Below are positions 34,606 to 64,000 of a stretch of DNA of 64,000 bases, piece by piece. The notes under the pieces were generated by a model. The model saw only the letters and a list, made by a program, of their open reading frames with translations, had not been told where the DNA came from and did not search any database. Numbering within the stretch: position 1 is the stretch's first letter; the number at the start of each line of letters is the position of its first letter. Where the stretch lies: assembly GCF_003991155.1 (NCBI RefSeq), contig NZ_CP031293.1; one strand, given 5' to 3'. A program made the translations under genes and the position numbers. The DNA comes from Escherichia coli (lineage in GTDB: Bacteria; Pseudomonadota; Gammaproteobacteria; Enterobacterales; Enterobacteriaceae).

Positions 34606-34953
34606 ATGAAAAAACTAGTATTTGCCGCTTTGTTAATTCCAGTGATGGGCCACGCCACAACCTTTTCCTGTAAAGCAATACAGGAAGGTCATATTGACTC
34701 GGGAAGTCAGAAAGTTTCTGTAGATTCAACTTTTGATATACAAGATAAAAAAATGACCATAAATCTTGGCGGTAAAACTTGGAGACTTGATTTGGTAGGT
34801 CAAAAAAGCATCGCAAAGATGTATGCTACACCTGACGGAGGGGTTGCAGCCACATACATTGACAATGGCAGTATACCGATATTTGTATTACGCCCTTCTA
34901 ATCCCGATGGGGAGATGGCTGTTTACACATTGAGTATGTGTTCTGAAGTATGA
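34606..34953 (+). CDS. Small secreted protein of unknown function (115 aa)
   Basis: Signal peptide MKKLVFAALLIPVMGHA/TT, AAGGGAG RBS, and a terminator directly downstream. Confidence 0.6.
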   Translation: MKKLVFAALLIPVMGHATTFSCKAIQEGHIDSGSQKVSVDSTFDIQDKKMTINLGGKTWRLDLVGQKSIAKMYATPDGGVAATYIDNGSIPIFVLRPSNPDGEMAVYTLSMCSEV

Positions 34954-35030: not shown

Positions 35031-35756
35031 CTATTTATTAACAGGTAGTAATGTCAGATCGCCATAATGGGCTTGTCTATGGCAATTAGGACATAATGCA
35101 ATAGCATTTTCCACAGAGTCCTCCCCCCCCTTTGAAAGCCACTCAATATGATGAACTTCTAGAAATGGAGTACCATCTTCCTTTAGAAAAGGAGCATCTC
35201 GCTTACAATATTGACATTTTCCATTTGCACTCAAAAGAACTTCAGCAACTACATATGGGCTTCGTTTATAAACTCGTGTTGTTACTTCGATTAGTTCCGG
35301 GATTTTACTTTCTGTCGCTAAAATTTGCTTTCGTTCCACTGAAGATAATTTTGCAGCCGTCTCAACAGCTTCTTCGAAAACCGATTTTACTTGACGATAA
35401 CGCCACATCCCTTCTAAATCCTGGTATAATTCCCAAATACCGTGCACAGATGGTTGATAGATTTCAAAAATATTTCCACGCTTGAACAATCGGTCATACT
35501 TATGATGCCGATGAGTTACATCATCAGTTCGTCGGGCAGTTTTGTTGAAACTCCAGTAGCTCCGCTTACAATTAACTGTATTAGCAATTAAATTGAGCCA
35601 AGTATTATCTTTATAAGATGGAAATAGCTTTCTAAGATAATCATCTACCTGCTTAGCCGTTGCAGCCCCACCAAACTGATTAGCAATTATCTGTATGGTA
35701 ATAGCTCTTATCGGTTGATCGCCATACTTGTATTTTTTGCCTAAATTTTTAACCAT
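35031..35756 (-). CDS. HNH nuclease with a roughly 160-aa uncharacterised N-terminal domain (241 aa); candidate type IV-like restriction/defence nuclease
   Basis: C-terminal HNH: CQYC...FLEVHHIEWLSKGGEDSVENAIALCPNCHRQAH (McrA-like beta-beta-alpha-Me with CxxC...CxxC). The N-terminal region is not recognisable. Confidence 0.75.
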   Translation of the reverse strand: MVKNLGKKYKYGDQPIRAITIQIIANQFGGAATAKQVDDYLRKLFPSYKDNTWLNLIANTVNCKRSYWSFNKTARRTDDVTHRHHKYDRLFKRGNIFEIYQPSVHGIWELYQDLEGMWRYRQVKSVFEEAVETAAKLSSVERKQILATESKIPELIEVTTRVYKRSPYVVAEVLLSANGKCQYCKRDAPFLKEDGTPFLEVHHIEWLSKGGEDSVENAIALCPNCHRQAHYGDLTLLPVNK

Positions 35757-48244: not shown

Positions 48245-48254
48245 TCTCCTTTCA

Positions 48255-48283
48255 AGGCGCTGTATCGACAGCGCCTTTTCTTT
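48255..48283 (+). terminator. metG rho-independent terminator
   Basis: AGGCGCTGT-ATCG-ACAGCGCCT followed by TTTTCTTT. Confidence 0.8.
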
Positions 48284-48384
48284 ATAAATTCCTAAAGTTG
48301 TTTTCTTGCGATTTTGTCTCTCTCTAACCCGCATAAATACTGGTAGCATCTGCATTCAACTGGATAAAATTACAGGGATGCAGA

Positions 48385-51300
48385 ATGAGACACTTTATCT
48401 ATCAGGACAAAAAATCACATAAATTCTGGGCGGTGGAGCAGCAAGGCAACGAGTTACATATCAGTTGGGGCAAAGTCGGCACTAACGGGCAAAACCAGGT
48501 AAAAAGCTTTGCTGATGCTGCGGCAGCGGCAAAAGCGGAGCTTAAGCTGATCGCGGAGAAAACGAAAAAAGGCTATGTGGAAAATGCTTCAGCAAACGTG
48601 CATATCCCCCCCATCACCAAAGCCACTCCTGAAGTTAAAACTCCCCCTGTGAGTCAAAATAAACACCCATGGCTGGCTGATGATGCAGTCATTCCTGTCA
48701 CTGACGATATTAATCGATTTGCTTTTCCACATCGCTCTCGCCCCAGAGAGATCAATTATCTGCACAAAGATGGTCAAATATGGCAGCGCATTGCGAATAA
48801 CACCAGGGCATATGACCCCGACAATAATTACCGCTCTTATCCTGAAAACTGGCAGCAAGCGTTTGCCGAGTTACAAAGTCGAATTCTGGACAATCAACAA
48901 ACAGGGAGTGCGCAATCTGATGCGGCATTGCTCTGGAGTTTTTGGAACTCTTACTCTGCAGATGAACTGGTCGATGACTTAGTCATTCGCTGTGGTCTGG
49001 AAAGTGCCGTTGAAATCGCCCTTTTTGCTCTTCAACTCAAATATAAACCAGTAAAAGGCGCAGTCACCACCATCATTCCACCTGGTCACAAAGCAGAATC
49101 GCTACCGAGTTGGCATCAACGTCTATGTCATCATCTTTCACTCGCTTCAGAAGATGAGTGGCAACGCTGTGTGAATAAAGTGCTTACTGCTATTCCGACG
49201 CTATCCCCAGCACGGCAACCTTTTGCGGCGTTACTGCTCCCTGAACGCCCGGATATTGCCAATGCTATGGCTCTACGTTACGCAGACCAAAACGTTCCGG
49301 CGATGACCTGGTTAAGACTGGTAGTAACCGATGATGCCGCTCTGACTGCAGCAGAAAAATACGACTTCCCACCGTTATATCGTGATTTTCGCGCTTATCT
49401 GGCAATGTTGCTGGCAAATAATGGGGTGAGCGGTGTAAGCCGGATACTTACTGAGTTTGTGGAAGAGCATTCTGACAATCCCACTTATCTCTTCGAGCGC
49501 ATCAGCGAGACTGAAGATCTTGTCAAATGGTTATGGAAAACGAATCACCCGGATGCGATTCAAATTCTGATCCTCGGTGTAATTGGCAAGAAAAAGCACC
49601 TGGAATACTTAAGCAAAGCCTGTCAAAAACATCCCGCTGCGGCTATTGCCGCTTATGCAACTTTGCTGGCAATACATGAAGATGCACAGTGGCGCAACGC
49701 GCTTGTCAAACTGGTTACCGTCACGCCAGAGTTGGTATGTGACGTCATTCCCTGGGTTAATGCTAAAGCGGCAGGCATCTTATCTGAATGTCGTCCGCAG
49801 CCAGTAGCTGAAGAATGTGAATATGCCACTGTGGATATGTTGCCGGAGCTGTTTGTTTCGCCGCCCTGGATGACCAAAGAGAAAAAGAAAAATACGCCTG
49901 TGTTTGATCTTCCAGTGCTTCCAGTTCCTTCTGTTTCTGATGTCACTCCCGAGATTGCCAAAAGACTAACCCGTACTTACCTTGTCACCCGCTTCCAGCA
50001 AATAGCCCAACAGCAGGCGACAAAACAAACATTGTTTACCGACCTGCCGCCGATAAAAAAAGCAAGCTGGGAGAAACACTTAATACCGCTTACACCGGAG
50101 CAACAAATACTGTGGCATCTTGGTTTTGAAAAATGGCGGGAAAGCGGAGAAAAAATCTACGAAAAAATTCCGGCGCCACAAAGCGCCGTTGATGCCCTGC
50201 TACGCTTCGATTTTCCAGCACTCAATGCTGAATTTGTGCAATACCATAACAATGCATACAAAAGCTGGAATCTCATTGCCCTCTGTTACCTGCCTGGTCA
50301 ACAGGCCATTTCTTTTCTTAACCAGATAGTCAAAGAAGATAACTACTCTGATGAGGGAAATATTCTGGCAATTTTTGGTAGCGCCGCCATACCTGCATTT
50401 ATGACCTGCCTGCAACGTGATCCACGACGTCTGTGCTTCTTCCCCTTTTTCCTCGGTGTCAGTGACCTGGCCTTACCGATGGCGCAACAATTACAGAAAA
50501 AAATGTCTTATGACGATGCGCGAAACTGGCTGACTGATTACCCGCGCCATGCCGCCGCCGGACTGCTTCCTGTAGCACTGGGTAAACACTGCCAAAATCG
50601 GGAATATGCCCGCCAGGCGCTCCGCCTGCTGGTGAATTTAAACCAACGAGAAACGATTGAGGAAATCGCCCGGGGGTATAACCAACCAGATGTTTTAGCT
50701 GCGCTGGCAACATTGTTCGATAGCGACCCACTGGAAGAATATCCTGCAAAAATCGCCCCATTGCCCGGCTTTTATCAGTTCACCTTATGGCGCAGACCAC
50801 GGCTTAAAAGTAACAATCTGCCTCTGTCCGATGACGCTATGCGCCACCTGGGCACTATGTTGAGCTTCCCTCGCGACATTACCGCCTACGCTGGACTGGA
50901 TATCATTAGAGAAATCTTCACCCGGGAATCACTGGCTGACTTTGGCTGGGATCTCTACACGGCATGGATGGAATCTGGCGCGCCCGCAAAAGAAAACTGG
51001 GCATTTACCTCGCTGGGGATTTTAGGCAATAACGACACCGCGCGTAAACTAACCCCGCTTATCCGGGCCTGGCCGGGTGAATCCCAGCATAAACGCGCGG
51101 TTTCTGGGCTCGATGTGTTAGCCAGTATCGGTAGCGATATTGCGCTGATGCTGCTTAATGGCATTGCACAAAAAATTAAATTCAAAGCATTGCAGGAACA
51201 TGCCCGCGACAAAATCAATATGGTCGCCGAAAATCGCGGATTGACAATGGCCGAACTGGAAGACCGCCTGGCTCCAGATTTAGGGCTTGATATCAACGGC

Positions 51301-52185
51301 TCGCTGATACTTGATTTCGGCCCACGTCAATTCACCGTTGGTTTTGACGAAACCTTAAAACCTGTAGTGCGCGATGCAAACGGCAAGGTCCTGAAAGATT
51401 TACCCAAACCAAATCAGAGCGATGATAAAACACTGGCAACTGACGCCGTTAACCTCTTTAAACAATTGAAGAAAGATGTTCGTGCTATCGCCAGCCAGCA
51501 AATTACCCGTCTGGAACAGGCTATGTGCCAGCGCAGACGCTGGACGACAGAGCAGTTCCGCCTGTTCATGGTGGAGCACCCACTGGTACGTCACTTAACC
51601 CGACGACTGTTATGGGGGGTATATACTGAGGAAAACACGCTGATTGCCTGCTTCCGGGTCGCAGAAGACAGCACTTACAGCGATATGCAGGATGAGCTAT
51701 TCACGCTACCAGCAGGAAACATCGGTATTCCGCATATGCTGGAAATCCCCCCTGAATCTGCCGCTGCATTCAGGCAAATTTACGCTGATTACGAACTGCT
51801 CCCCCCCTTCCAACAGCTCGATCGTGGTAGTTATCGTCTTGCTGATAATGAACGGAATACCCACGAACTGACACGCTGGAGCGGACGCCTTTGCCAGGCA
51901 GGGCGCATTGTCGGGCTAGAGCGCCGAGGTTGGCAACGTCTGGAAGAAAGCGGCAGCGTCTATGCGATGCGCAAATCTACTCCTTATGGCGATCTCGAAC
52001 TTGAAACAGAACATTTTTCATTAATTTATGGCGAAACAGGTTATGGCGACCTGTTACCTGTTGAAAGCGTAAAAATCACCTCGCCAGATGATCGCTACGG
52101 TAAACAACCTTTACTTACTTTTTCCATGCTCGACGACATCACCGCCAGCGAGCTGATTAACGACATTGAATCATTGTTTGATTAA
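48385..52185 (+). CDS. WGR-domain plus DUF4132 large protein, paralog 1 (1266 aa; YehH/MolR family)
   Basis: N-terminal WGR (KFWAVEQQGNELHISWGKVGTNGQ..KGY). C-terminal block FGPRQFTV..HPLVRHLTRRLLWGVY..ADYELLPPFQQLDR is typical of DUF4132 as found in YehI/MolR. Confidence 0.85.
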   Translation: MRHFIYQDKKSHKFWAVEQQGNELHISWGKVGTNGQNQVKSFADAAAAAKAELKLIAEKTKKGYVENASANVHIPPITKATPEVKTPPVSQNKHPWLADDAVIPVTDDINRFAFPHRSRPREINYLHKDGQIWQRIANNTRAYDPDNNYRSYPENWQQAFAELQSRILDNQQTGSAQSDAALLWSFWNSYSADELVDDLVIRCGLESAVEIALFALQLKYKPVKGAVTTIIPPGHKAESLPSWHQRLCHHLSLASEDEWQRCVNKVLTAIPTLSPARQPFAALLLPERPDIANAMALRYADQNVPAMTWLRLVVTDDAALTAAEKYDFPPLYRDFRAYLAMLLANNGVSGVSRILTEFVEEHSDNPTYLFERISETEDLVKWLWKTNHPDAIQILILGVIGKKKHLEYLSKACQKHPAAAIAAYATLLAIHEDAQWRNALVKLVTVTPELVCDVIPWVNAKAAGILSECRPQPVAEECEYATVDMLPELFVSPPWMTKEKKKNTPVFDLPVLPVPSVSDVTPEIAKRLTRTYLVTRFQQIAQQQATKQTLFTDLPPIKKASWEKHLIPLTPEQQILWHLGFEKWRESGEKIYEKIPAPQSAVDALLRFDFPALNAEFVQYHNNAYKSWNLIALCYLPGQQAISFLNQIVKEDNYSDEGNILAIFGSAAIPAFMTCLQRDPRRLCFFPFFLGVSDLALPMAQQLQKKMSYDDARNWLTDYPRHAAAGLLPVALGKHCQNREYARQALRLLVNLNQRETIEEIARGYNQPDVLAALATLFDSDPLEEYPAKIAPLPGFYQFTLWRRPRLKSNNLPLSDDAMRHLGTMLSFPRDITAYAGLDIIREIFTRESLADFGWDLYTAWMESGAPAKENWAFTSLGILGNNDTARKLTPLIRAWPGESQHKRAVSGLDVLASIGSDIALMLLNGIAQKIKFKALQEHARDKINMVAENRGLTMAELEDRLAPDLGLDINGSLILDFGPRQFTVGFDETLKPVVRDANGKVLKDLPKPNQSDDKTLATDAVNLFKQLKKDVRAIASQQITRLEQAMCQRRRWTTEQFRLFMVEHPLVRHLTRRLLWGVYTEENTLIACFRVAEDSTYSDMQDELFTLPAGNIGIPHMLEIPPESAAAFRQIYADYELLPPFQQLDRGSYRLADNERNTHELTRWSGRLCQAGRIVGLERRGWQRLEESGSVYAMRKSTPYGDLELETEHFSLIYGETGYGDLLPVESVKITSPDDRYGKQPLLTFSMLDDITASELINDIESLFD

Positions 52186-52197
52186 AAGGATTTAGCA

Positions 52198-55100
52198 ATG
52201 AAAACCTATATTTATCAGGACGAAAAATCACATAAATTCTGGGCAGTGGAGCAACAGGGAAACGAGCTGCATATTAGTTGGGGCAAAGTCAGTACCAACG
52301 GGCAAAGCCAGGTAAAAAGCTTTGCTGATGCTGCGGCGGCGGAAAAAGCGGAACTGAGGCTGATTGCGGAGAAGATGAAGAAGGGGTATGTGGAGCAAGC
52401 GAAGGATAATTCTTTGCAACCTTCCCAAACGGTAACGGATTCTCTCAAGGTAGCGGCCTTATCCACCATTATTCAGGAACAACCCTTTTGCGTAGCAGAA
52501 GCCCGTGTGGCTGACAAAAATACAGATGATGTTTTACCGTGGCTGGCGAAAGATATTGCTGTCGTTTTTCCGCCCGAAGTTGTACACACCACGTTAAGCC
52601 ATCGCCGCTTTCCCGGAGTTCCTGTTCAGCAAGCAGACAACTTGACCCAGTTACGTCGCTTAGCCTGTAGCGTGTCGCAACGGGATAATAAAACAGCCAC
52701 ATTTGACTTCAGCGCCTGTTCTTTAGTATGGCAAAACACCGTCGCCCAGGCGATCAGTCAGATCGACTGCCTGAAAACAACACAGTTACCATCACCAGTA
52801 ATGGCTGTACTCACGGCACTTGAAATGAAATGCACAAGATATAAAGTGCGTGAGGATGTTATGGATCAGATCATTCAGGAAGGCGGTCTGGAATATGCTA
52901 CTGATGTAATAATACACCTTCAACAGATTGATATTGAATGGAATTATGCGAATAATATCATTATTATTCTGCCGTCTGGCATTGCACCTGATAACTTGCA
53001 GCAATATTCCAGTTTTGAATTACGCCTACGGAAACATTTATCACTGGCGGAAGAGTCTCTCTGGCAAAAATGTGCACAAAAACTTATTGCCGCAATTCCA
53101 CATATTCCAGAATGGCGGCAACCATTAATTGCTTTGTTATTACCCGAAAAACCAGAAATTGCACATGAAATTGCCCAGCGTCTACTGGGGAAAAAAAAAT
53201 TACCCTCGCTTGAGTGGCTAAAAATAGTGGCGACTGATGAGCACATTCTTGCCTCATTAGAAAAATATCACGAGCCATATGCCATTTTTGATGATTACTA
53301 TTGTGGTGCGATATGGTCAGCCACCGTATTACAGGAGCAAGGTGTTGCAGCCCTGCCCCGATTTGCTCCCTATGCCGCAAGTGACTACTGCGCCGATGTG
53401 TTGCGTCATATCAATCATCCGTTCGCATTAACACTGCTTATACGTGTAGCCGGGCATACTAAACGCTGTCACGATCGAATGACGAAAGCCTGCGCTGCGT
53501 TCCCACACGCAGCACTGGCAGCACTGGCGGAACTTCTAGTGCAAAAAGAAGAGAATAGTTGGCGCATTATGCTAATGACGATGCTTATCTCGCAACCAGC
53601 ACTGGCAGAACAGGTCATTCCCTGGCTTTCGACACCCGCAGCTGCAGTGCTGAAATCATGCCAGCAACAACTGACACAGCCATCAAACCATGCCAGCACC
53701 GATCTACTGCCGGCCATAGTAGTCTCCCCACCATGGCTTTCGAAAAAGAAAAAATCGTCGATTCCGGTGCTTGATTTAGCACCATTAGGCATTGAGCCAA
53801 TCAGTTATCTGACAGAAGAAATCAGTAATCAACTTTTGGCGAAATATATCTGGTATTCAAAACACATCACGGTTAGTCATGAAGAAAGTACTGCCAATCT
53901 GTTGGCAAGGATGGGTTTTCAACGACGGATCGCTGGTACATATATTAAAGCTCCCGAAGCGGTAGTTGAGGCATGGCTAAATGAAGATTATTCAACCTTA
54001 ATAAGTGAATTTAAGGTGTTTCATTCACCTACCGGGCATTATTGGCATTTGGGGATTTTGACAACATTGCCGCTGGAGAAAGCAATAAGAGCATGGAATG
54101 CCCTTACTCTATCTCCGCATACCGATACCGAATACGCCATGTTACATTTTGGACTCAAAGGATTACCTGGGTTAGTAAACTCACTTGCACGTTATCCACA
54201 GGAAGCCTTGCCCATAACGAATTACTTCGCAGCGAGTGAGCTGGCTCCTGCCGTCGCCCGCGCCTTCAACAAACTCAAAACCCTACGACAAGACGCCCGC
54301 ACCTGGCTGCTGAAATACCCGGAACACGCCATTACCGGCCTGCTACCTTCGGCGCTCGGCAAAGCCGGTGAAGCACAGGATAACGCCCGCGCTGCCTTGC
54401 GTATGCTTATCGAAAACGATCATCAGCCATTACTGCAAGAAATCGCCCGGCGTTATAACCAGCCGGAAGTAACAGATGCGGTGAACGCTATGCTTGCGCT
54501 CGATCCCTTAGATAATCACCCGACAAAAATCCCCACTCTTCCGGCCTTTTATCAGCCATCGATCTGGACCCGCCCGGTATTAAAAGCAAATGCCCAATCA
54601 CTGCCAGATAACGCCCTCCTCCACCTCGGTGAAATGCTCCGCTTCCCTCAGGAAGAGGCTCTGTATCCGGGATTATTGCAGGTGAAAGATGCCTGTACCG
54701 CCGACTCACTGGCTGAATTTGCCTGGGATCTGTTTACCGCCTGGCAGACCGCTGGCGCACCGTCGAAAGAAAGTTGGGCGTTCACTGCGTTAGGCGTTCT
54801 CGGTAACGATGACACCGCCCGCAAACTGACGCCATTAATCCGCGCCTGGCCTGGCGAATCTCAGCATAAACGTGCCACCGTTGGGTTGGATATTCTCGCT
54901 GCTATCGGCAGCGATATCGCCCTGATGCAGCTTAACGGCATCGCCCAGAAACTGAAATTCAAAGCATTACAGGAGCGAGCAAAAGAAAAAATTGCCGACA
55001 TTGCCGAAAGCCGCGAACTCACAGTGGCAGAACTTGAAGATCGGTTAGCACCGGATCTCGGTCTGGATGATAACGGTTCGCTGCTGCTGGATTTCGGGCC

Positions 55101-55992
55101 ACGGCAGTTCACCGTCAGCTTTGATGAAACCTTAAAACCGTTTGTGCGTGATGCTTCCGGCAGCCGCCTGAAAGACTTGCCTAAACCGAACAAAAGCGAT
55201 GATGAAACCCAAGCGAACGATGCAGTTAACCGCTACAAACTGTTGAAAAAAGATGCGCGTACCGTTGCCGCCCAGCAGGTAGCAAGGCTGGAATCCGCCA
55301 TGTGCCTACGCCGCCGCTGGTCGCCGGAAAACTTCCAGCTATTCCTGGTTGAGCATCCGCTGGTTCGCCACTTAACCCGCCGTCTGATTTGGGGCGTTTA
55401 TAGCACCGAAAACGAGCTACTGGCCTGTTTCCGGGTGGCAGAAGATAACAGCTACAGCACCGCTGACGATGATCTTTTCACCCTGCCGGAAGGCGATATC
55501 TCTATTGGTATTCCTCACGTTCTGGAAATATCACCGACGGATGCCGCCGCCTTTGGTCAGCTTTTTGCCGACTACGAACTTTTACCGCCGTTCCGTCAGC
55601 TCGACCGCAACAGTTATGCCCTGACTGAAGTCGAACGCAACGCCAGCGAACTAACCCGCTGGGCAGGCAGAAAATGCCCGAGCGGTCGGGTTATGGGGCT
55701 GTCGAATAAAGGCTGGGTGCGTGGTGAACCGCAGGACGGTGGCTGGATCGGCTGGATGATCAAACCTCTGGGCCGCTGGTCATTAATCATGGAAATCGAT
55801 GAAGGATTTGCAGTTGGTATGTCGCCAGCCGAACTCAGTGCCGAGCAACTCTTAAGCAAGCTGTGGCTATGGGAAGGCAAAGCAGAAAGCTATGGCTGGG
55901 GGAGTCATTCAACACAGGAAGCGCAGTTCTCCGCACTCGATGACATCACCGCCAGCGAGTTGATTAACGATATTGAAGCCCTGTTTGAATAA
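52198..55992 (+). CDS. WGR-domain plus DUF4132 large protein, paralog 2 (1264 aa; YehH/MolR family)
   Basis: Same architecture as paralog 1. Begins 12 nt after its stop. The N-terminal about 70 aa and the last about 20 aa are near-identical to paralog 1. Confidence 0.85.
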   Translation: MKTYIYQDEKSHKFWAVEQQGNELHISWGKVSTNGQSQVKSFADAAAAEKAELRLIAEKMKKGYVEQAKDNSLQPSQTVTDSLKVAALSTIIQEQPFCVAEARVADKNTDDVLPWLAKDIAVVFPPEVVHTTLSHRRFPGVPVQQADNLTQLRRLACSVSQRDNKTATFDFSACSLVWQNTVAQAISQIDCLKTTQLPSPVMAVLTALEMKCTRYKVREDVMDQIIQEGGLEYATDVIIHLQQIDIEWNYANNIIIILPSGIAPDNLQQYSSFELRLRKHLSLAEESLWQKCAQKLIAAIPHIPEWRQPLIALLLPEKPEIAHEIAQRLLGKKKLPSLEWLKIVATDEHILASLEKYHEPYAIFDDYYCGAIWSATVLQEQGVAALPRFAPYAASDYCADVLRHINHPFALTLLIRVAGHTKRCHDRMTKACAAFPHAALAALAELLVQKEENSWRIMLMTMLISQPALAEQVIPWLSTPAAAVLKSCQQQLTQPSNHASTDLLPAIVVSPPWLSKKKKSSIPVLDLAPLGIEPISYLTEEISNQLLAKYIWYSKHITVSHEESTANLLARMGFQRRIAGTYIKAPEAVVEAWLNEDYSTLISEFKVFHSPTGHYWHLGILTTLPLEKAIRAWNALTLSPHTDTEYAMLHFGLKGLPGLVNSLARYPQEALPITNYFAASELAPAVARAFNKLKTLRQDARTWLLKYPEHAITGLLPSALGKAGEAQDNARAALRMLIENDHQPLLQEIARRYNQPEVTDAVNAMLALDPLDNHPTKIPTLPAFYQPSIWTRPVLKANAQSLPDNALLHLGEMLRFPQEEALYPGLLQVKDACTADSLAEFAWDLFTAWQTAGAPSKESWAFTALGVLGNDDTARKLTPLIRAWPGESQHKRATVGLDILAAIGSDIALMQLNGIAQKLKFKALQERAKEKIADIAESRELTVAELEDRLAPDLGLDDNGSLLLDFGPRQFTVSFDETLKPFVRDASGSRLKDLPKPNKSDDETQANDAVNRYKLLKKDARTVAAQQVARLESAMCLRRRWSPENFQLFLVEHPLVRHLTRRLIWGVYSTENELLACFRVAEDNSYSTADDDLFTLPEGDISIGIPHVLEISPTDAAAFGQLFADYELLPPFRQLDRNSYALTEVERNASELTRWAGRKCPSGRVMGLSNKGWVRGEPQDGGWIGWMIKPLGRWSLIMEIDEGFAVGMSPAELSAEQLLSKLWLWEGKAESYGWGSHSTQEAQFSALDDITASELINDIEALFE

Positions 55993-56001
55993 GGAAAGAA
56001 C

Positions 56002-59000
56002 ATGGACAAGGAATTACCGTGGCTGGCGGATAACGCCCAACTGGAACTGAAATATAAAAAAGGCAAAACACCACTCAGCCATCGCAATTGGCCGGGAGAA
56101 CCGGTGCCTGTTATCACTGAAAGCCTCATCCAGACACTGGGTGATAAATTGCTACACATTGCTGAGAAGAAAAAAAACATTGTCTGGCGTTATGAAAATT
56201 TTTCACTGGAATGGCAGTCCGCCATCACGCAGGCCATCAACTTGATCGGCGAGCACAAACCCTCAGTTCCGGCCCGGACAATGGCGGCGCTAGCCTGTAT
56301 CGCGCAAAATGACAGCCAACAGTTGCTCGACGAAATCGTCCAACAAGAGGGACTGGAATATGCGACTGAGGTGGTGATTGCACGCCAGTTTATTGCACAG
56401 TGTTATGAGAGTGATCCTCTGCTAGTGACATTGCAGTATCAGAACGAGGATTATGGCTATGGTTATCGCTCAGAAACCTATAACGAATTCGATCTCCGAC
56501 TGCGTAAGCATCTCTCTCTGGCAGAGGAAAGCTGCTGGCAGCGTTGCGCCGACAAACTCATTGCCGCACTGCCAGGACTACCCCAAGTTCGCCGTCCTTT
56601 TATTGCGCTGATCCTCCCGGAAAAACCAGAAATCGCCAATGAGTTGGTAGGCCTTGAATGCCCGTGGACTCATTTTCATTCTAAGGAGTGGTTAAAAGTT
56701 GTTGCTACTGACCACAGGGCAGTGGGAAAACTCGAACGCTACTGGAGCCAGGATATATTTAGCGATCGCGAAGCCAGCTACATGTCGCATGAAAACCACT
56801 TCGGCTACGCGGCCTGCGCCGCCCTTTTGCGCGAACAAGGAATTGCAGCCGTTCCACGCCTCGCGATGTATGCCCATAAAGAAGATTGCGGCAGTCTGCT
56901 GGTACAAATTAACCATCCGCAGGTCATCCGTACCCTGCTGTTAGTTGCTGATAAAAATAAACCCAGCCTGCAACGTGTGGCTAAATACAGTAAAAACTTC
57001 CCCCATGCGACGCTTGCCGCACTGGCAGAGCTTCTGGCGTTAAAAGAACCGCCTGCACGCCCTGGTTATCCAATCATCGAAGACAAAAAGCTGCCTGCAC
57101 AGCAAAAAGCTCGAGATGAATACTGGCGTACGCTGTTACAAACGCTGATGGCATCGCAGCCACAACTGGCAGAAGAGGTGATGCCGTGGTTAAGTACTCA
57201 AGCCCAGGCAGTGCTGAATAGTTATTTATCGGCACCGCCCAAAACGGTTATTGATAGCACCGATAACATCCAAATGCCTGAAATCCTCGTTTCACCACCG
57301 TGGCGTAGTAAGAAAAAAATGACAGTTCCACGTCTTGATTTGGCACCGTTCGAATTAACGCCGCAAGTTTACTGGCAACCAGGCGAACGAGAGAGGCTTG
57401 CCGCCACTGAGTCTGCCCGTTATTTCAGCACGGAATCTCTTGCGGAACGCATGGAACAAAAAAGTGGACGAGTTGTATTACAGGAGCTGGGTTTTGGAGA
57501 TGATGTATGGCTGTTTTTGAATTATATACTCCCCGGAAAACTGGATGCTGCACGCAATTCACTCATTGTTCAGTGGCATTACTACCCAGGGCGGGTTGAA
57601 GAGATCATGAATGGCTGGAGCTCCCCGGAAGCTCAATTAGCAGAACAGGCGCTTCGCAACGGTCACGTAGAAGTGTTAATTAACATATGGGAAAATGACA
57701 GCTACTCACGCTATCGTCGGGAAAAGAGTATCTGGAACCTGTATTTATTGGCGCAGTTGCCGCGTGAGATGGCTTTGACTTTCTGGCTACGTATCAATGA
57801 GAAAAAGCATCTGTCTGCGGGTGAGGACTATTTTCTCAGTATCTTCGGATTGGATGCTCTACCAGGTCTGCTGTTGGCTTTTTCACATCGTCCAAAAGAA
57901 ACATTTCCATTAATTTTAAATTTCGGCGCAACAGAACTGGCCCTGCCCGTTGCCCGCGTCTGGCGACGTTTCGCGGCGCAGCGTGATCTGGCTCGCCAGT
58001 GGATTTTACATTGGCCGGAACATACAGCTACTGCACTTATCCCTCTTGTCTTCACCAAATCCAGCGATAATAGCGAAGCTGCATTACTTGCCCTGCGTTT
58101 ACTTTACGAACAGGGACATGGCGAATTACTGCAAACCGTGGCAAACCGCTGGCAGCATACAGATGTATGGCCTGCCCTGGAGCAATTACTTAAACAGGGT
58201 CCAATGGACATTTACCCGGCACGCATTCCCAAAGCCCCTGATTTCTGGCATCCGACAATGTGGTCCAGACCGAGACTTATCACGAATAATCAGCCTGTTA
58301 CCGATGATGCTCTGGAAATTATCGGCGACATGCTGCGCTTTACCCAGGGCGGACGTTTTTATTGCGGGCTGGAACAACTGAAAACGTTCTGCCAGCCACA
58401 AACGCTGGCAGCTTTTGCCTGGGATCTCTTCACCGCGTGGCAACAAGTTGGCGCCCCCGCAAAAGACAACTGGGCATTTCTGGCGTTAAGTCTCTTCGGT
58501 GACGAAAGCACGGCTCGGGATCTGACAACACAGATCCTCGCCTGGCCACAGGAAGGCAAATCTGCCCGTGCCGTCAGTGGCCTGAACATACTTACTCAGA
58601 TGAATAATGATATGGCGCTGATACAGCTGCATCATATATCGCAACGGGCGAAATCCCGCCCCTTACGTGATAACGCGGCGGAATTTCTTCAGGTGGTCGC
58701 AGAAAATCGTAGGCTAAGCCAGGAACAGTTAGCGGACAGATTAGTCCCAACACTGGGTCTTGATGATCCGCAGGCGTTGAGTTTTGATTTTGGTCCACGG
58801 CAATTTACCGTTCGCTTTGATGAAAACCTTAACCCGGTTATCTTTGATCAGCAAAACGTTCGCCAGAAAAGCGTTCCCCGGTTGCGCGCCGATGACGATC
58901 AACTGAAAGCGCCCGAGGCACTGGCCCGACTAAAAGGGCTAAAAAAAGATGCGACTCAGGTGAGCAAAAACCTGCTCCCGCGTCTTGAAACGGCCCTACG

Positions 59001-59634
59001 CACCACCCGACGCTGGTCGCTGGCAGATTTTCATACTCTGTTTGTTAATCATCCCTTTACCCGCCTGGTTACTCAGCGATTAATATGGGGCGTGTATCCG
59101 GCAAATGAACCGCGTCGTTTACTCAACGCCTTTCGTGTGGCCGCAGAGGGGGAGTTCTGCAATGCACAAGATGAGCCCATTGACCTGCCTGCGGATGCTT
59201 TGATTGGCATTGCCCACCCGTTAGAAATGACAGCAGAAATGCGCAGTGAATTTGCACAGCTTTTTGCCGATTACGAAATTATGCCGCCTTTTCGCCAGTT
59301 GACGAGGCGCACAGTGCTGCTCACGCCTGACGAGTCAGCCAGTAACAGCCTGACTCGCTGGGAAGGTAAATCCGCTACCGTTGGGCAACTTATGGGAATG
59401 CGATACAAAGGCTGGGAGTCAGGCTATGAGGACGCATTTGTCTATGACCTGGGCGAGTACCGGCTGGTCCTTAAGTTTTCATCCGGTTTTAACCACTACA
59501 ATGTTGATAGCAAAGCGCTAATGAGCTTCCGTTCTCTTCATGTATACCGTGACAATAAATCTGTCACTTTTGCCGAACTTGATGTGTTTGATTTGAGTGA
59601 AGCGTTAAGCGCACCCGACGTCATTTTCCATTAA
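56002..59634 (+). CDS. yehI: YehI, DUF4132 large protein lacking the WGR domain (1210 aa)
   Basis: Third paralog, starting at the LPWLA motif that follows WGR plus linker in paralogs 1 and 2. Its length equals K-12 YehI as I recall. Confidence 0.85.
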   Translation: MDKELPWLADNAQLELKYKKGKTPLSHRNWPGEPVPVITESLIQTLGDKLLHIAEKKKNIVWRYENFSLEWQSAITQAINLIGEHKPSVPARTMAALACIAQNDSQQLLDEIVQQEGLEYATEVVIARQFIAQCYESDPLLVTLQYQNEDYGYGYRSETYNEFDLRLRKHLSLAEESCWQRCADKLIAALPGLPQVRRPFIALILPEKPEIANELVGLECPWTHFHSKEWLKVVATDHRAVGKLERYWSQDIFSDREASYMSHENHFGYAACAALLREQGIAAVPRLAMYAHKEDCGSLLVQINHPQVIRTLLLVADKNKPSLQRVAKYSKNFPHATLAALAELLALKEPPARPGYPIIEDKKLPAQQKARDEYWRTLLQTLMASQPQLAEEVMPWLSTQAQAVLNSYLSAPPKTVIDSTDNIQMPEILVSPPWRSKKKMTVPRLDLAPFELTPQVYWQPGERERLAATESARYFSTESLAERMEQKSGRVVLQELGFGDDVWLFLNYILPGKLDAARNSLIVQWHYYPGRVEEIMNGWSSPEAQLAEQALRNGHVEVLINIWENDSYSRYRREKSIWNLYLLAQLPREMALTFWLRINEKKHLSAGEDYFLSIFGLDALPGLLLAFSHRPKETFPLILNFGATELALPVARVWRRFAAQRDLARQWILHWPEHTATALIPLVFTKSSDNSEAALLALRLLYEQGHGELLQTVANRWQHTDVWPALEQLLKQGPMDIYPARIPKAPDFWHPTMWSRPRLITNNQPVTDDALEIIGDMLRFTQGGRFYCGLEQLKTFCQPQTLAAFAWDLFTAWQQVGAPAKDNWAFLALSLFGDESTARDLTTQILAWPQEGKSARAVSGLNILTQMNNDMALIQLHHISQRAKSRPLRDNAAEFLQVVAENRRLSQEQLADRLVPTLGLDDPQALSFDFGPRQFTVRFDENLNPVIFDQQNVRQKSVPRLRADDDQLKAPEALARLKGLKKDATQVSKNLLPRLETALRTTRRWSLADFHTLFVNHPFTRLVTQRLIWGVYPANEPRRLLNAFRVAAEGEFCNAQDEPIDLPADALIGIAHPLEMTAEMRSEFAQLFADYEIMPPFRQLTRRTVLLTPDESASNSLTRWEGKSATVGQLMGMRYKGWESGYEDAFVYDLGEYRLVLKFSSGFNHYNVDSKALMSFRSLHVYRDNKSVTFAELDVFDLSEALSAPDVIFH

Positions 59635-59694
59635 ACCACAGCGGGCAGTGATGCGACTGCCCGTTATTAACACGACCTGCCACCGGGAAAAGCG

Positions 59695-60015
59695 ATGATC
59701 GTGCAAAAAGAGCTGGTCGCTATTTATGATTATGAAGTCCCTGTACCTGAAGATCCGTTTTCCTTCAGACTTGAGATCCATAAATGCTCTGAATTATTTA
59801 CAGGTTCCATCTACCGGCTGGAGCGATTCCGGCTACATCCAACATTTCATCAACGTGATCGAGAGGATATCGACCCGCTAATAAATGATGCGTTGATTTA
59901 TATAAGAGATGAGTTTATTGATGAGCGAAAATTACGGGGCGAATCACCAGAAATGGTAATAGCCATTTTTAATCGTGAACTACAGAATATATTCAACCAA
60001 GAAATAGAAAAATAG
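59695..60015 (+). CDS. yehK: YehK small protein of unknown function (106 aa)
   Basis: ORF in the conserved position after yehI. A weak hairpin (59642-59668) precedes it. Confidence 0.7.
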   Translation: MIVQKELVAIYDYEVPVPEDPFSFRLEIHKCSELFTGSIYRLERFRLHPTFHQRDREDIDPLINDALIYIRDEFIDERKLRGESPEMVIAIFNRELQNIFNQEIEK

Positions 60016-60068
60016 CTTTATTAAAGAGGGAGACGGTATTCCCCCTTAGATGCGTTTCAATTTGCCCG

Positions 60069-60158
60069 TTACTTCAACAAATCAATCAACCGTAACAGAG
60101 CCACTAATAACTCCAGTACGGCAATGAGCACAGTTAACTTTTGTGTCAGCGTGTCCAT
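60069..60158 (-). CDS. zorO: ZorO-type type I toxin, 29-aa hydrophobic peptide MDTLTQKLTVLIAVLELLVALLRLIDLLK
   Basis: Not in the ORF track because it is too short. AAGGAGAG SD lies 4 nt upstream of ATG 60158. The single-TM amphipathic peptide matches the ZorO toxin sequence as I recall it. A roughly 175-nt 5' UTR runs from a consensus promoter. Confidence 0.75.
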   Translation of the reverse strand: MDTLTQKLTVLIAVLELLVALLRLIDLLK

Positions 60159-60339
60159 CCGCTCTCCTTATTAAGGAGCGCAACACCAGCACCTTACCCT
60201 TACACTGCCTGTCGATACTGGTTTACGTATGTTGGACCACGATGTTGCACTCCGGATCAGGGCACTACCTGCGGCACCACCCGTCCGGTAGCCATGACTT
60301 GAAATGGGTTCGATCCGGCGCAACGTCCCAACAGTCAGG

Positions 60340-60390
60340 ATTATAAATCTCATTATCTTAATTGCAACGGGGTCCACCGATGGTTATAAT
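60340..60390. promoter_or_regulatory. Back-to-back sigma70 promoters sharing one palindromic -35 (TTGCAA, 60362-60367)
   Basis: Plus strand: TTGCAA-N17-TATAAT (60385-60390), driving the sRNA. Minus strand: TTGCAA-N16-TATAAT (60345-60340), driving the toxin mRNA. Confidence 0.7.
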
Positions 60391-60396
60391 TCGTTC

Positions 60397-60479
60397 GTTG
60401 GAACACGATGTTGCACAGGCTGCGGCGTTGGGCCTGAAAATAGTAAATAAAAGAACCTGCCTCACCAGCAGGTTTTTTT
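60397..60479 (+). ncRNA. orzO: Orz-type antitoxin sRNA (about 83 nt)
   Basis: Consensus promoter upstream. Terminator AACCTGC-CTCACCA-GCAGGTT plus T7 at 60454-60479. The 5' 20 nt (GTTGGAACACGATGTTGCAC) repeat the plus-strand sequence at 60231-60250 with 1 mismatch, so they are complementary to the toxin 5' UTR. Confidence 0.72.
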
Positions 60480-60590
60480 ATTTACTGTGATCTGCTTTCC
60501 AGATATTTTCCGCTCAAACAACTAATGCGCCAAACATTTATTGCGCGTAAAATATCGTTTATTTCATTAATACATTTCAGGGATGAATAT

Positions 60591-61679
60591 ATGTCACCGC
60601 AGAATAATCATCTGCAGCGTCCGCCTGCCGCTGTGTTATACGCCGATGAACTGGCAAAATTAAAACAAAATGATCACGCACCTTGCCCGCCCGGTTGGCA
60701 GTTAAGTTTGCCTGCGGCCCGTGCTTTTATCCTTGGCGACGAAGCGCAAAATATTAGCCGTAAAGTCGTGATCAGTCCCTCCGCTGTCGAACGCATGTTA
60801 GTCACTCTCGCTACCGGGCGCGGTTTGATGTTGGTGGGGGAACCTGGCACCGCAAAATCGCTCCTGTCTGAATTACTGGCAACCGCTATTAGCGGCGATG
60901 CCGGGTTAACCATCCAGGGCGGCGCATCTACCACCGAAGATCAAATCAAGTACGGCTGGAACTACGCTCTGCTTATCAATCATGGTCCATCAACGGAAGC
61001 GCTGGTCCCTGCCCCGCTTTACCAGGGAATGCGCGACGGCAAAATCGTCCGTTTTGAAGAAATAACGCGTACACCGCTGGAAGTGCAGGACTGTCTGTTA
61101 GGTATGCTTTCTGACAGGGTGATGACGGTGCCGGAACTCACCGGTGAAGCCAGTCAGCTCTATGCGCGGGAAGGCTTTAATATTATTGCCACTGCCAATA
61201 CCCGCGATCGCGGCGTCAATGAAATGAGTGCTGCGCTAAAGCGTCGTTTCGATTTTGAAACTGTCTTTCCGATTATGGATTTCGCTCAGGAGCTGGAGCT
61301 TGTCGCCAGTGCTTCGGCGCGTTTGCTGGCCCATAGCGGTATTCCGCATAAAGTGCCTGACGCGGTACTGGAGTTACTGGTCCGCACCTTCCGCGATCTG
61401 CGTGCCAACGGCGAAAAGAAAACGTCAATGGATACACTAACAGCGATTATGTCCACCGCTGAAGCCGTGAACGTGGCCCACGCTGTGGGCGTCCGCGCCT
61501 GGTTTTTAGCGAATCGCGCAGGTGAGCCAGCCGATCTGGTGGACTGTATTGCCGGAACCATCGTCAAAGATAACGAAGAAGATCGCGCTCGTCTGCGCCG
61601 TTACTTCGAACAGCGAGTCGCCACACATAAAGAAGCTCACTGGCAGGCTTATTATCAAGCCCGCCACCGCCTGCCGTGA
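60591..61679 (+). CDS. yehL: YehL, MoxR-like AAA+ ATPase (362 aa from MSPQNN)
   Basis: Walker A GEPGTAKS, Walker B-like VRFEEITR, and sensor/arginine-finger regions typical of the MoxR/RavA clade. Confidence 0.9.
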   Translation: MSPQNNHLQRPPAAVLYADELAKLKQNDHAPCPPGWQLSLPAARAFILGDEAQNISRKVVISPSAVERMLVTLATGRGLMLVGEPGTAKSLLSELLATAISGDAGLTIQGGASTTEDQIKYGWNYALLINHGPSTEALVPAPLYQGMRDGKIVRFEEITRTPLEVQDCLLGMLSDRVMTVPELTGEASQLYAREGFNIIATANTRDRGVNEMSAALKRRFDFETVFPIMDFAQELELVASASARLLAHSGIPHKVPDAVLELLVRTFRDLRANGEKKTSMDTLTAIMSTAEAVNVAHAVGVRAWFLANRAGEPADLVDCIAGTIVKDNEEDRARLRRYFEQRVATHKEAHWQAYYQARHRLP

Positions 61680-61689
61680 GGAAAGATGC

Positions 61690-63969
61690 ATGAGCGAGCC
61701 GTTAATTGTCGGCATCCGGCATCATAGCCCGGCCTGCGCCCGGCTGGTGAAATCGTTAATCGAAAGCCAGCGGCCACGATACGTGTTGATTGAAGGCCCG
61801 GCTGATTTTAATGACCGGGTAGACGAACTGTTTTTAGCCCACCAGCTTCCGGTAGCTATTTACAGTTATTGCCAGTATCAGGACGGTACGGCCCCCGGGC
61901 GCGGTGCCTGGACGCCATTTGCTGAATTTTCACCGGAGTGGCAGGCGCTACAAGCCGCACGTCGTATTCAGGCACAAACTTACTTCATCGATTTACCTTG
62001 CTGGGCGCAGAGTGAAGAAGATGACGATTCGCCTGATACGCAAGAGGAAAGCCAGACCTTGCTGCTGCGTGCCACCCGCATGGATAACAGCGACACCCTG
62101 TGGGATCACTTGTTCGAAGATGAAAGCCAGCAAACTGCATTACCCTCTGCGCTGGCGCACTATTTTGCACAACTGCGGGGCGATTCCCCCGGAGATGCTC
62201 TCAATCGTCAGCGCGAAGCCTTTATGGCCCGCTGGATTGCATGGGCGATGCAGCAAAACAATGGCGACGTGTTAGTCGTCTGCGGCGGCTGGCATGCTCC
62301 GGCACTGGCAAAGATGTGGCGCGAATACACGCAGGAAATTAACACGCCGGAATTGCCCTCGCTGGCAGATGTCGTTACAGGTTGTTATCTCACCCCCTAC
62401 AGTGAAAAGCGCCTTGATGTGCTGGCAGGATACCTTTCCGGTATGCCTGCCCCGGTCTGGCAAAACTGGTGCTGGCGGTGGGGCTTGCAGCAGGCAGGTG
62501 AACAACTGCTGAAAACGGTTCTTACCCGTTTGCGCCAGCACCACTTGCCTGCTTCAACAGCGGATATGGCTGCCGCTCATCTGCATGCGATGGCACTGGC
62601 ACAGTTGCGCGGTCATACACTACCGTTACGCACTGACTGGCTGGATGCCATAGCAGGCTCGCTGATTAAAGAAGCCCTGAATGCGCCGTTGCCGTGGAGC
62701 TATCGCGGCGTTATTCATCCCGATACCGATCCGATTCTGCTAACGTTGATAGACACATTAGCGGGTGACGGATTCGGTAAACTTGCCCCTTCTACGCCAC
62801 AACCGCCTCTGCCAAAAGATGTCACCTGCGAACTGGAACGTACCGCAATCTCTCTTCCGGCGGAGCTTACCTTAAATCGCTTTAACCCCAATGGACTAGC
62901 GCAAAGTCAGGTGTTACATCGGCTGGCAATACTGGAGATCCCAGGGATTGTACGCCAGCAGGGAAGCACACTGACACTTGCAGGCAACGGTGAAGAACGC
63001 TGGAAATTAACCCGCCCGCTTAGCCAGCATGCGGCATTGATTGAGGCCGCCTGCTTTGGTGCAACACTCCAGGAAGCCGCACGCCATAAATTAGAAGCCG
63101 ATATGCTGGACGCGGGTGGAATCGGCAGTATCACCACATGTCTTAGCCAGGCGGCGTTAGCGGGTCTGGCGTCCTTCAGTCAGCAATTACTGGAACAACT
63201 CACATTATTAATCGCCCAAGAAAATCAGTTTGCCGAAATGGGCCAGGCGCTGGAAGTGCTTTACGCCTTGTGGCAGCTCGATGAAATCAGCGGTATGCAA
63301 GGCGCGCAGATATTACAAACGACGTTATGCGCGGCTATCGATCGCACGCTGTGGCTGTGTGAATCTAACGGCAGACCGGATGAAAAGGAGTTTCACGCTC
63401 ACCTGCATAGCTGGCAAGCGCTTTGCCATATCCTGCGCGATCTACATAGCGGCGTTAATTTACCCGGCGTTTCTCTTTCTGCGGCGGTAGCCTTACTGGA
63501 GCGACGCAGTCAGGCGATTCATGCCCCGGCGCTGGATCGCGGCGCGGCTCTTGGCGCACTAATGCGTCTGGAACATCCCAACGCCAGTGCCGAAGCGGCG
63601 CTGACGATGCTGGCGCAGTTATCCCCGGCACAATCCGGCGAGGCGCTGCACGGTTTGCTGGCGCTGGCCCGCCATCAACTGGCCTGTCAGCTGGCATTTA
63701 TCGCCGGTTTCAGTAGTCATTTAAATCAACTGAGTGACGACGATTTTATTAACGCCCTGCCCGATTTACGCGCGGCGATGGCCTGGCTACCACCACGAGA
63801 ACGCGGGACGCTGGCGCATCAGGTGCTTGAGCATTACCAGCTCGCACAGCTTCCCATTTCAGCGCTGCAAATGCCGTTGCATTGTCCACCGCAAGCCATT
63901 GCACATCATCAACAACTCGAACAGCAGGCACTGGCATCGCTGCAACACTGGGGAGTTTTCCATGTCTGA
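61690..63969 (+). CDS. yehM: YehM, large protein of unknown function (759 aa from MSEPLIVGIRHHSPA)
   Basis: Conserved partner of yehL. The start lies 8 nt after the yehL stop, and the track ORF start at 61522 is inside yehL. Confidence 0.88.
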   Translation: MSEPLIVGIRHHSPACARLVKSLIESQRPRYVLIEGPADFNDRVDELFLAHQLPVAIYSYCQYQDGTAPGRGAWTPFAEFSPEWQALQAARRIQAQTYFIDLPCWAQSEEDDDSPDTQEESQTLLLRATRMDNSDTLWDHLFEDESQQTALPSALAHYFAQLRGDSPGDALNRQREAFMARWIAWAMQQNNGDVLVVCGGWHAPALAKMWREYTQEINTPELPSLADVVTGCYLTPYSEKRLDVLAGYLSGMPAPVWQNWCWRWGLQQAGEQLLKTVLTRLRQHHLPASTADMAAAHLHAMALAQLRGHTLPLRTDWLDAIAGSLIKEALNAPLPWSYRGVIHPDTDPILLTLIDTLAGDGFGKLAPSTPQPPLPKDVTCELERTAISLPAELTLNRFNPNGLAQSQVLHRLAILEIPGIVRQQGSTLTLAGNGEERWKLTRPLSQHAALIEAACFGATLQEAARHKLEADMLDAGGIGSITTCLSQAALAGLASFSQQLLEQLTLLIAQENQFAEMGQALEVLYALWQLDEISGMQGAQILQTTLCAAIDRTLWLCESNGRPDEKEFHAHLHSWQALCHILRDLHSGVNLPGVSLSAAVALLERRSQAIHAPALDRGAALGALMRLEHPNASAEAALTMLAQLSPAQSGEALHGLLALARHQLACQLAFIAGFSSHLNQLSDDDFINALPDLRAAMAWLPPRERGTLAHQVLEHYQLAQLPISALQMPLHCPPQAIAHHQQLEQQALASLQHWGVFHV

Positions 63970-64000
63970 ACTGAACGATCTTCTGACCACCTGTGAGCTA
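63962..64000 (+). CDS. yehP: YehP (VWA-domain protein), first 13 codons only
   Basis: ATG 63962 overlaps the yehM stop (ATGTCTGA). MSELNDLLTT matches the YehP N-terminus as I recall. The VWA domain itself lies outside the window. Confidence 0.6.
   Translation, partial: MSELNDLLTTCEL

Follow-up and report, generated by a model that had tools for sequence, protein, structure and literature searches.

A five-family MoxR-VWA operon of bacteria, with the Escherichia coli yeh cluster as one copy, a candidate hydrolase subunit and an SOS box before its first DUF4132 gene

Do the large genes of the yeh cluster of Escherichia coli belong to one system and, if so, what might it do? The end of a 64,000-nucleotide (nt) stretch of E. 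coli DNA (contig NZ_CP031293.1; hereafter the window) carries three DUF4132 genes (D1, D2 and yehI), followed by yehK, a type I toxin-antitoxin element, the MoxR-type ATPase gene yehL, the DUF5682 gene yehM and the start of yehP, which encodes a VWA protein; yehQ, encoding a SWIM protein, lies past the window end (Table 1). A first-pass annotation of this DNA had proposed an uncharacterised system, possibly for NTP-dependent sensing or biological conflict, and held that no function had been defined for it by experiment. On the latter point our literature search agreed, finding no paper that describes the function of any component. The component set of this MoxR-VWA system is likewise described in no paper that the search found. 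Two things had been overlooked: the regulation of the locus by DNA damage, which is in the literature, and a hydrolase-like domain in YehM.

The yeh cluster is the E. coli copy of a five-family operon. This operon is conserved in at least five phyla, and a sixth has a reduced variant. A search of 1.84 billion cluster representatives with the C-terminal DUF4132 region of D1 gave 4913 clusters at E≤1e-3 and 1167 at E≤1e-30, in which the domain nearly always forms the C-terminus of a protein of 900–1400 amino acids (aa). As an anchor we used the consensus of 116 DUF4132 domains, chosen so that no single lineage dominates; it draws on the core DUF4132 subfamily, and linkage may be lacking in distant members. 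Searching a one-genome-per-species collection with this anchor yielded 77 loci from beta-, gamma- and alpha-Pseudomonadota, Myxococcota, Desulfuromonadaceae, Holophagales and many Actinomycetota, and partners were detected by running hidden Markov models (HMMs) of the E. coli and Luteimonas proteins on all flanking open reading frames (ORFs). Homologues of YehL, YehM, YehP and YehQ were all present in 54 of the 77 loci, so that YehL and YehP were paired in each of these, and seven more loci held some of the partners before the locus ended. The remaining 16 lacked partners; eight were uninformative (a short contig, or a DUF4132 array filling the flank) and eight were true orphans. Every partner ORF (237/237) lay on the anchor strand. 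With partners in 54 loci, or in part in seven more, and all of them co-directional, the linkage is far beyond chance. DUF4132 genes unlinked to MoxR and VWA genes outside the Enterobacteriaceae had been named beforehand as the finding that would speak against a common system; we find the association, complete in 54 of 77 loci, well beyond that family.

Plasmids extend this picture. The DUF4132-bearing records of PLSDB, which were listed in full, have the module alongside in 24 of 29 cases, including a Bacillus mycoides plasmid (Bacillota), and a DUF4132 orphan on a Rhodococcus plasmid is an unlinked distant member. Linkage is seen in Pseudomonadota, Actinomycetota, Acidobacteriota and Bacillota, and probably also in Myxococcota, where a metagenome-assembled genome labelled 'delta proteobacterium' (L127) has a partial module. 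A metagenome scan anchored on YehM returned E. coli contigs only and hence no information on diversity. The gene order is L-M-P-Q and then DUF4132 in Burkholderia and Pseudomarimonas and L-M-DUF4132-P-Q in Sinorhizobium, a Proteus version in which YehM identity is only 28% still has the full arrangement with all five gene positions, the number of DUF4132 genes per locus ranges from one to five across taxa, and stop and start codons of module genes often overlap. Clustering of the flanking ORFs gave lineage-specific synteny only and no recurring sixth gene, so the module is self-contained. That it has been kept together across at least five phyla argues for one conserved activity. A Hymenobacter plasmid (L162, 5183–13422) carries a YehL-YehM-YehP trio with DUF5691 and a 203-aa protein, and has neither DUF4132 nor SWIM; this trio, in the company of other large partners, may be the ancestral core.

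YehL and YehP are conserved far better than DUF4132 and YehQ. Mean pairwise identity among 52 genomes with the module was 70.7% for YehL and 66.3% for YehP, then 49.7% for YehM, 42.1% for DUF4132 and 39.3% for YehQ; the ratio of non-synonymous to synonymous substitution rates (dN/dS) between the window strain and K-12 was 0.023 for yehL, 0.041 for yehP, 0.13 for yehM, 0.19 for yehI (the highest in the locus), 0.096 for yehQ and 0.13 for yehK, and about 0.01 for the flanking metG and btsS. High identity and low dN/dS mark YehL and YehP, the engine of the module, as strongly constrained. The large partner proteins evolve 5–15 times faster than the flanking genes, still under purifying selection. 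The identity of YehL, measured from Pseudomonadota to Actinomycetota, exceeds what is usual for accessory AAA+ proteins, which means either very strong constraint or else recent transfer between phyla.

The engine keeps its ATPase and MIDAS motifs. In YehL, the Walker A motif GEPGTAKS, E156-E157 (Walker B), N203 of sensor 1 and R218-R219 (arginine finger) are at least 95% conserved (59 sequences), as are D222-Q-S224-G-S226, T249, T256 and D307 of MIDAS, the adhesion site that depends on a metal ion, in YehP (55 sequences), the MIDAS threonine being either T249 or T256. Of seven MoxR subfamilies, one has YehL as its type member (PMC3893208). The solved structure closest to YehL is the AAA_5 module of Midasin (E=7e-10), and the bpMoxR profile scores YehL at 18.4 bits, under the cut-off of 27.

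Judged by their sequences, D1, D2 and YehI (33–44% protein identity among the three) are old duplicates. WGR stands at the N-terminus of D1 and D2, in which the motif reads W-G-K, and of most of their relatives. The C-terminal DUF4132 domain is modelled as an alpha+beta fold (predicted local distance difference test, pLDDT, 84.5), and the central region of a Proteus homologue matches HEAT_2. In YehQ, the SWIM motif CxCx5-6CRH is kept in 55 of 56 homologues, though YehQ is the least conserved component.

YehM is the component in which we see a possible output. An alignment of 25 sequences has invariant G-x-R-H11, E35 (in VLIEGP), R175-E176 and C-G-G-x-H202, and H11, E35, R175, E176 and H202 are kept in 62 YehM sequences from Pseudomonadota to Actinomycetota. 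The order of these residues resembles the GxxH...E...R...GxxH signature of TraB/Tiki proteins. In an AlphaFold2 model of YehM (pLDDT 83.9; predicted template-modelling score 0.75), the best structural matches of the N-terminus belong to the TIKI/TraB/Ere/ChaN superfamily and include RRSP, HopBA1, PMT, Bcr135, EreC and ChaN; the parallel beta-sheet core common to ChaN, HopBA1, Bcr135, PMT and RRSP is present in the model. The paper on the RRSP structure places PMT, HopBA1, Bcr135 and ChaN in the TIKI superfamily, with an active site of two His and two Glu plus a conserved basic residue (PMC6254334). Below threshold, Pfam reports Erythro_esteras (E=0.06) and ChaN (E=0.063) in two of the 25 YehM members each; they are among twelve sub-threshold families and tie with CBM46 as the most recurrent after DUF5682, a family that our literature search did not find mentioned. 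We consider it quite likely that the YehM N-terminus adopts the TIKI/TraB/Ere/ChaN fold, and the predicted fold together with the invariant His/Glu/Arg/Glu/His set suggests that the system probably has a hydrolase output. For catalytic competence of YehM we would give about an even chance.

An SOS (LexA) box, the one that the literature reports for molR, lies 25 nt upstream of D1, the first DUF4132 gene. molR, the K-12 gene at this position, is among the LexA-regulated genes with a known SOS box (PMC6590174 Table 1), and its induction by damage is taken from the literature alone. Three Klebsiella species have the same CTGGATAAAA..ACAG box at −24. When all loci were scanned, a relaxed LexA pattern was at background outside Escherichia and Klebsiella; since the box is limited to these two genera, we do not claim universal SOS control. 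In E. coli, membership of the SOS regulon holds for the D1/molR promoter, and yehLMPQ is not known to be induced by damage. The molR promoter is activated by BglJ-RcsB and is not repressed by H-NS (PMC3950696). Loss of hns and stpA relieves the repression of yehL and yehM, and H-NS occupies the intergenic region upstream of them (PMC3686432). In Deinococcus radiodurans, mitomycin C induces DRA0166 (DUF4132) and DR2173 (WGR) via IrrE/DdrO (PMC8533742). Two unrelated damage regulons, LexA in E. coli and IrrE/DdrO in Deinococcus, therefore converge on the DUF4132 and WGR families, which is suggestive and not universal.

Taken together, these results lead us to a tentative model, to which we would give somewhat under an even chance. 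YehL, YehP, YehM, YehQ and the DUF4132 proteins would form one ATP-driven MoxR-VWA remodelling machine, in which YehP, through its MIDAS site, holds a partner by an acidic residue while the YehL ring exerts a pull on that partner. The remodelled partners would most likely be the large subunits of the system itself, because nothing else is conserved beside the operon. The DUF4132 proteins evolve fast and differ in copy number; we read them as exchangeable subunits, inputs or adaptors, through whose WGR domains the machine would be linked to nucleic acid, and the SWIM finger of YehQ may do likewise. YehM, with its TIKI/TraB/erythromycin-esterase-like head on a HEAT-like scaffold, would be the output: once licensed by remodelling, it would act as a peptidase or esterase. 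In Escherichia and Klebsiella, the SOS box before the first DUF4132 gene suggests that an input subunit would be supplied after DNA damage. We lean towards a role in DNA damage or genome surveillance over classical phage defence. A more specific version, which we regard as speculative and on the whole unlikely, makes the module an undescribed class of MoxR-VWA surveillance machine: DNA that is broken, protein-adducted or foreign would be detected by SOS-induced WGR-DUF4132 sensors together with the SWIM protein, and ATP-driven remodelling by YehL/YehP would license YehM as a TIKI-family protease; this would be a bacterial counterpart of AAA+-assisted DNA-protein crosslink repair, or a new protease-based form of abortive-infection immunity.

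Several observations weigh against this model. We infer, from gene linkage, motifs and models, that the proteins form a complex, bind nucleic acid and hydrolyse a substrate, and the biological role is a further step of the same kind. YehI and many other DUF4132 paralogues have no WGR domain, the DUF4132 domain model has no informative structural relative, and our searches found no reported defect in K-12, in which the WGR paralogue is broken. The fold assigned to the YehM N-terminus comes from a predicted structure: no significant sequence-profile similarity to any TIKI-superfamily family was found, a Foldseek search of the YehM model against the PDB gave non-significant helical-solenoid matches only, and hhalign of the YehM N-terminal domain with a YbaP/TraB profile gave a probability of 0.4%, both profiles being of low diversity. 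LexA-type motifs upstream of WGR genes are absent in Serratia, beta-proteobacteria and actinobacteria (GAAC-N4-GTTC). Finally, yehLMPQ has its own H-NS-silenced promoter and is set apart from the SOS-controlled genes by the toxin-antitoxin element.

Known systems offer partial parallels. In the MoxR-vWA ternary conflict systems of Kaur, Burroughs, Iyer and Aravind (2020; VMAP, iSTAND and beta-propeller types; PMC7159879), as in the yeh module, a MoxR and vWA chaperone/co-chaperone pair is joined by a conserved third protein, and in VMAP, as in YehM, a peptidase-type domain at the N-terminus precedes a helical region. Extra components that evolve fast occur in both kinds of system, and both are common in actinobacteria and in other bacteria with large genomes. 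In contrast, the peptidase-like domain of YehM is TIKI-type, whereas theirs is trypsin or caspase, YehP lacks a C-terminal effector array, and the yeh module has five families and not three. No VMAP or iSTAND family matches were found in the module, and SWIM, WGR, YehL, MolR and DUF4132 go unmentioned in that paper, so the yeh module is not among the systems it describes. The pairs NorQ/NorD, CbbQ/CbbO, CoxD/CoxE and RavA/ViaA share with YehL/YehP the AAA+ ring and single VWA adaptor, in which MIDAS binds an acidic residue of the target and ATP hydrolysis remodels it (PMC9976466). Such maturation pairs are encoded beside their enzyme client and without DUF5682, DUF4132 or SWIM partners, whereas the yeh module has no linked client gene. 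In Midasin/Rea1, the eukaryotic remodeller of ribosome assembly, a single chain carries AAA_5 modules, a MIDAS domain and, as linker, a long helical stretch, and here these elements are split over YehL, YehM and YehP; the differences are separate genes, single-module ring subunits, and the addition of a hydrolase-like head and DNA-binding-type modules. The signature of the TIKI superfamily recurs in YehM with its order kept (GxxH, a Glu some 24 residues on, R-E-x-x-M, GxxH), but the YehM domain is fused to a helical scaffold of about 500 aa, is cytoplasmic and is operon-linked to an AAA+ ATPase, a context that the literature search did not find. The WGR domain at the start of D1 and D2, together with damage regulation of the first gene, recalls the DNA-break-sensing WGR of PARP, but no PARP catalytic domain is present here.

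The parallel with VMAP ternary systems (PMC7159879) makes anti-phage or anti-plasmid immunity the first alternative to consider. A MoxR-vWA ternary system of this kind would sense foreign nucleic acid or an invader protein through WGR-DUF4132 and release the YehM protease, which would cut a target of the host or of the invader and might bring about abortive infection. Toxins and effectors, RRSP and HopBA1 among them, belong to the TIKI superfamily, the input subunits evolve fast and differ in copy number, the module is patchy across taxa with copies on plasmids and megaplasmids, and H-NS silences yehL and yehM (PMC3686432), all of which is circumstantial support for immunity, as is an Iodobacter plasmid copy that adjoins a type I restriction-modification system, a PDDEXK nuclease and insertion sequence (IS) elements. 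However, none of the eight proteins matches PADLOC-DB v2 at E≤0.01, and among the 121 nearest flanking proteins from 40 genera there were at most nine PADLOC family matches, several of them weak, in what is a small sample without a formal background control. What lies beside the module is ordinary, namely genes for transport, signalling and metabolism, none of which recurs. The locus is fixed, being in 98% of complete E. coli genomes; 50,697 phage records contained no DUF4132 and one doubtful YehM-like match, and IMG/VR one match. The displacement of variable effector domains that Kaur et al. describe as a hallmark of conflict systems was not seen, and dN/dS is below 0.2 for every component. 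We thus consider immunity rather unlikely. Of the proposal for an NTP-dependent sensing or conflict system, the part that stands is one functional unit around an NTPase, given the linkage and the invariant ATPase and MIDAS motifs; the conflict label loses ground to the PADLOC, neighbourhood and phage results.

Two other readings differ on what the engine serves, or on whether it matters at all. Most MoxR-VWA pairs that have been studied are maturation factors (PMC3893208; PMC9976466) and YehP is in the CoxE-type VWA family, so the module could be a dedicated chaperone that matures a client, or inserts its cofactor, with the client gene lying elsewhere, possibly with a link to molybdate, in which the ChaN-like domain of YehM binds a cofactor and performs no hydrolysis. 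ChaN, one of the top structural matches of YehM, binds haem, and molR was named for a molybdate-utilisation phenotype. Yet known pairs adjoin their client genes and no enzyme gene recurs beside this module across 40 genera, the invariance of the full His/Glu/Arg/Glu/His set suits catalysis better than mere binding, and one would not expect WGR, SWIM or an SOS box in a chaperone of metallo-enzymes. Moreover, the original molybdate study was done in a K-12 background, where molR is disrupted, and the molybdenum genes of Deinococcus showed no co-variation with its DUF4132 gene (PMC8533742). A chaperone of this type seems quite improbable to us. The WGR-DUF4132 proteins might instead be plain 'MolR family' transcription factors, with the adjacency of yehLMPQ having no mechanistic meaning. 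Databases and one review do name MolR-like factors with a WGR DNA-binding domain (PMC7824862), and the sample has its eight true DUF4132 orphans plus the one on the Rhodococcus plasmid, but adjacency in about 88% of informative loci, in permuted orders that include DUF4132 between YehM and YehP, is hard to reconcile with such independence. The proteins are 1200–1400 aa long and consist mostly of non-DNA-binding sequence, one with a HEAT repeat match, and YehI is without any WGR. The linkage statistics strongly disfavour this reading, and we give it very little credence.

Seven or eight genes of the best-studied bacterium that have long been without a function, among them a member of the SOS regulon, are placed by the linkage in one module. 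A MoxR-VWA operon in E. coli is in itself unsurprising; this one is worth following as a core-genome module present in at least five phyla, with a candidate catalytic site and with an input under SOS control. Its Walker and MIDAS motifs and H11, E35, R175, E176 and H202 of YehM are precise targets for point mutants. Should the damage or the immunity reading be true, the module would be a new, protease-coupled branch of MoxR-VWA systems, and the control of molR by LexA would be explained. If neither is true, it is still a well-defined MoxR-VWA engine whose clients appear to be its partner proteins.

The features of the locus are collected in Table 1. The window is 100% identical to the RefSeq genome of E. 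coli 2016C-3878, which served as the reference for identity and annotation; its annotation and the ORFs agree on the coordinates and strand of all module genes, and metG is also among the window ORFs, upstream of D1. The same-strand order read in the first-pass annotation (two WGR-DUF4132 genes, yehI, yehK, a toxin-antitoxin element, yehL, yehM and the start of yehP) is borne out by ORF positions, Pfam and Rfam, as are the MoxR-type assignment of YehL, with its Walker A motif at aa 83–90, and the type I nature of the inserted element. Pfam also bears out the VWA identity proposed for YehP, and yehQ is annotated downstream, where it had been expected.

Table 1. Positions of the module genes and associated features in the window.
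Feature	Position	Strand	Details
SOS (LexA) box	48358–48377		AACTGGATAAAATTACAGGG, CTG-N10-CAG; ends 8 nt before the D1 start codon
D1, WGR-DUF4132	48385–52185	+	1266 aa; WGR at aa 5–69 (Pfam E=9e-19), DUF4132 at aa 1000–1183 (E=2e-51), long central region between
D2, WGR-DUF4132	52198–55992	+	1264 aa; Pfam WGR E=2e-15, DUF4132 E=1e-50
yehI, DUF4132 protein without WGR	56002–59634	+	1210 aa; Pfam DUF4132 E=2e-47
yehK	59695–60015	+	106-aa ORF; matches no family
zorO, type I toxin ORF	60069–60158	-	29 aa, hydrophobic
OrzO antitoxin small RNA	60404–60479	+	Rfam RF02083 (OrzO-P), 102.8 bits, E=1.5e-16
yehL, MoxR-type AAA+ ATPase	60591–61679	+	Pfam AAA_5 E=1.6e-34
Walker A motif of yehL	60837–60860
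yehM, DUF5682	61690–63969	+	759 aa; Pfam E=4e-98
YehM N-terminal ~240 aa	61690–62409		TIKI/TraB/Ere/ChaN-like fold (predicted)
YehM C-terminal half	~63022–63969		HEAT-like helical solenoid
yehP, start	63962–64000	+	VWA_CoxE E=4e-72; first 39 nt, then window end
yehQ	past window end		SWIM E=4e-7; downstream of yehP in 2016C-3878

The spacing of the genes suggests translational coupling: the gaps are 12 nt between D1 and D2, 9 nt between D2 and yehI and 10 nt between yehL and yehM, and the yehP start overlaps the yehM stop by 8 nt. An NCBIfam scan gave nothing informative, and PDB sequence searches with YehM, YehI and YehQ found nothing, a YehM profile retrieving spurious coiled coils only. HMM and phmmer searches with yehK across 79 loci matched only yehK itself, which is absent from the other module loci. 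The zor-orz copy sits at a location given in PMC2887945, according to which MG1655 has no zor-orz and O157:H7 has tandem copies. Here a single copy lies between yehK and yehL and parts the DUF4132 genes from yehLMPQ; it is an inserted element and not a component of the machine, and it divides what other genera keep as one operon.

Among E. coli strains the engine is constant and the DUF4132 genes are not. The cluster had been taken for part of the conserved E. coli backbone, and yehL-yehM is indeed present in 5333 of 5426 complete genomes (98%). D1 and D2 occur together in only 824 of the 5426, D1 being an accessory extra paralogue; most E. coli have a single gene, a D2 orthologue with a D1-type promoter and 5' end. 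K-12 has no D1, and its one such gene, likewise a D2 orthologue whose promoter and 5' end are D1-type, is disrupted (yehF plus the yehH pseudogene, together molR); D2 and the yehF/yehH region share 94.3% nucleotide identity. For the name, that of a molybdate regulator, we found no support, and the gene that bears it is disrupted in K-12. The first 197 nt of D1 and D2 are 86% identical, a plausible substrate for recombination. Composition (GC content 47–56%) has no clear anomaly that would point to recent transfer in E. coli. Relative to K-12 (L166), dS is 0.12–0.27 in the yeh cluster (56002–64000) and 0.05–0.07 in the downstream flank from yehR to mlrA, that is, two to four times higher in the cluster, which suggests older allelic lineages or recombination.

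Disruption of the DUF4132 genes is tolerated, since in ST131 sublineage L1a the blaCTX-M-15 transposon TnMB1860 lies in the metG/DUF4132/yeh region (window ~48245–59634; PMC9334617) and some E. coli genomes have IS insertions in the DUF4132 region. yehP (L001, 27578–28714) is reported to be a hotspot of +1 ribosomal frameshifting in K-12, where mass spectrometry saw the frameshifted product (PMC2790909). We rejected a phage origin for the module, phage copies being essentially absent and the sole YehM-like record looking bacterial. That record (MT835988.1, 'UNVERIFIED Bacteriophage sp.') has an L-M-P trio with MgsA/RarA, polysaccharide deacetylase, DUF5717, DUF5716 and TPR genes, and is probably not a phage. 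Elsewhere in the window, a perfect CTGT-N8-ACAG palindrome (CTGTAAAGCAATACAG) occurs at 34668–34683, inside an ORF of an apparent integrated element that includes a resolvase (33313–33864), an XRE-like gene (34031–34531, minus strand) and an HNH-like gene (35031–35756, minus strand).

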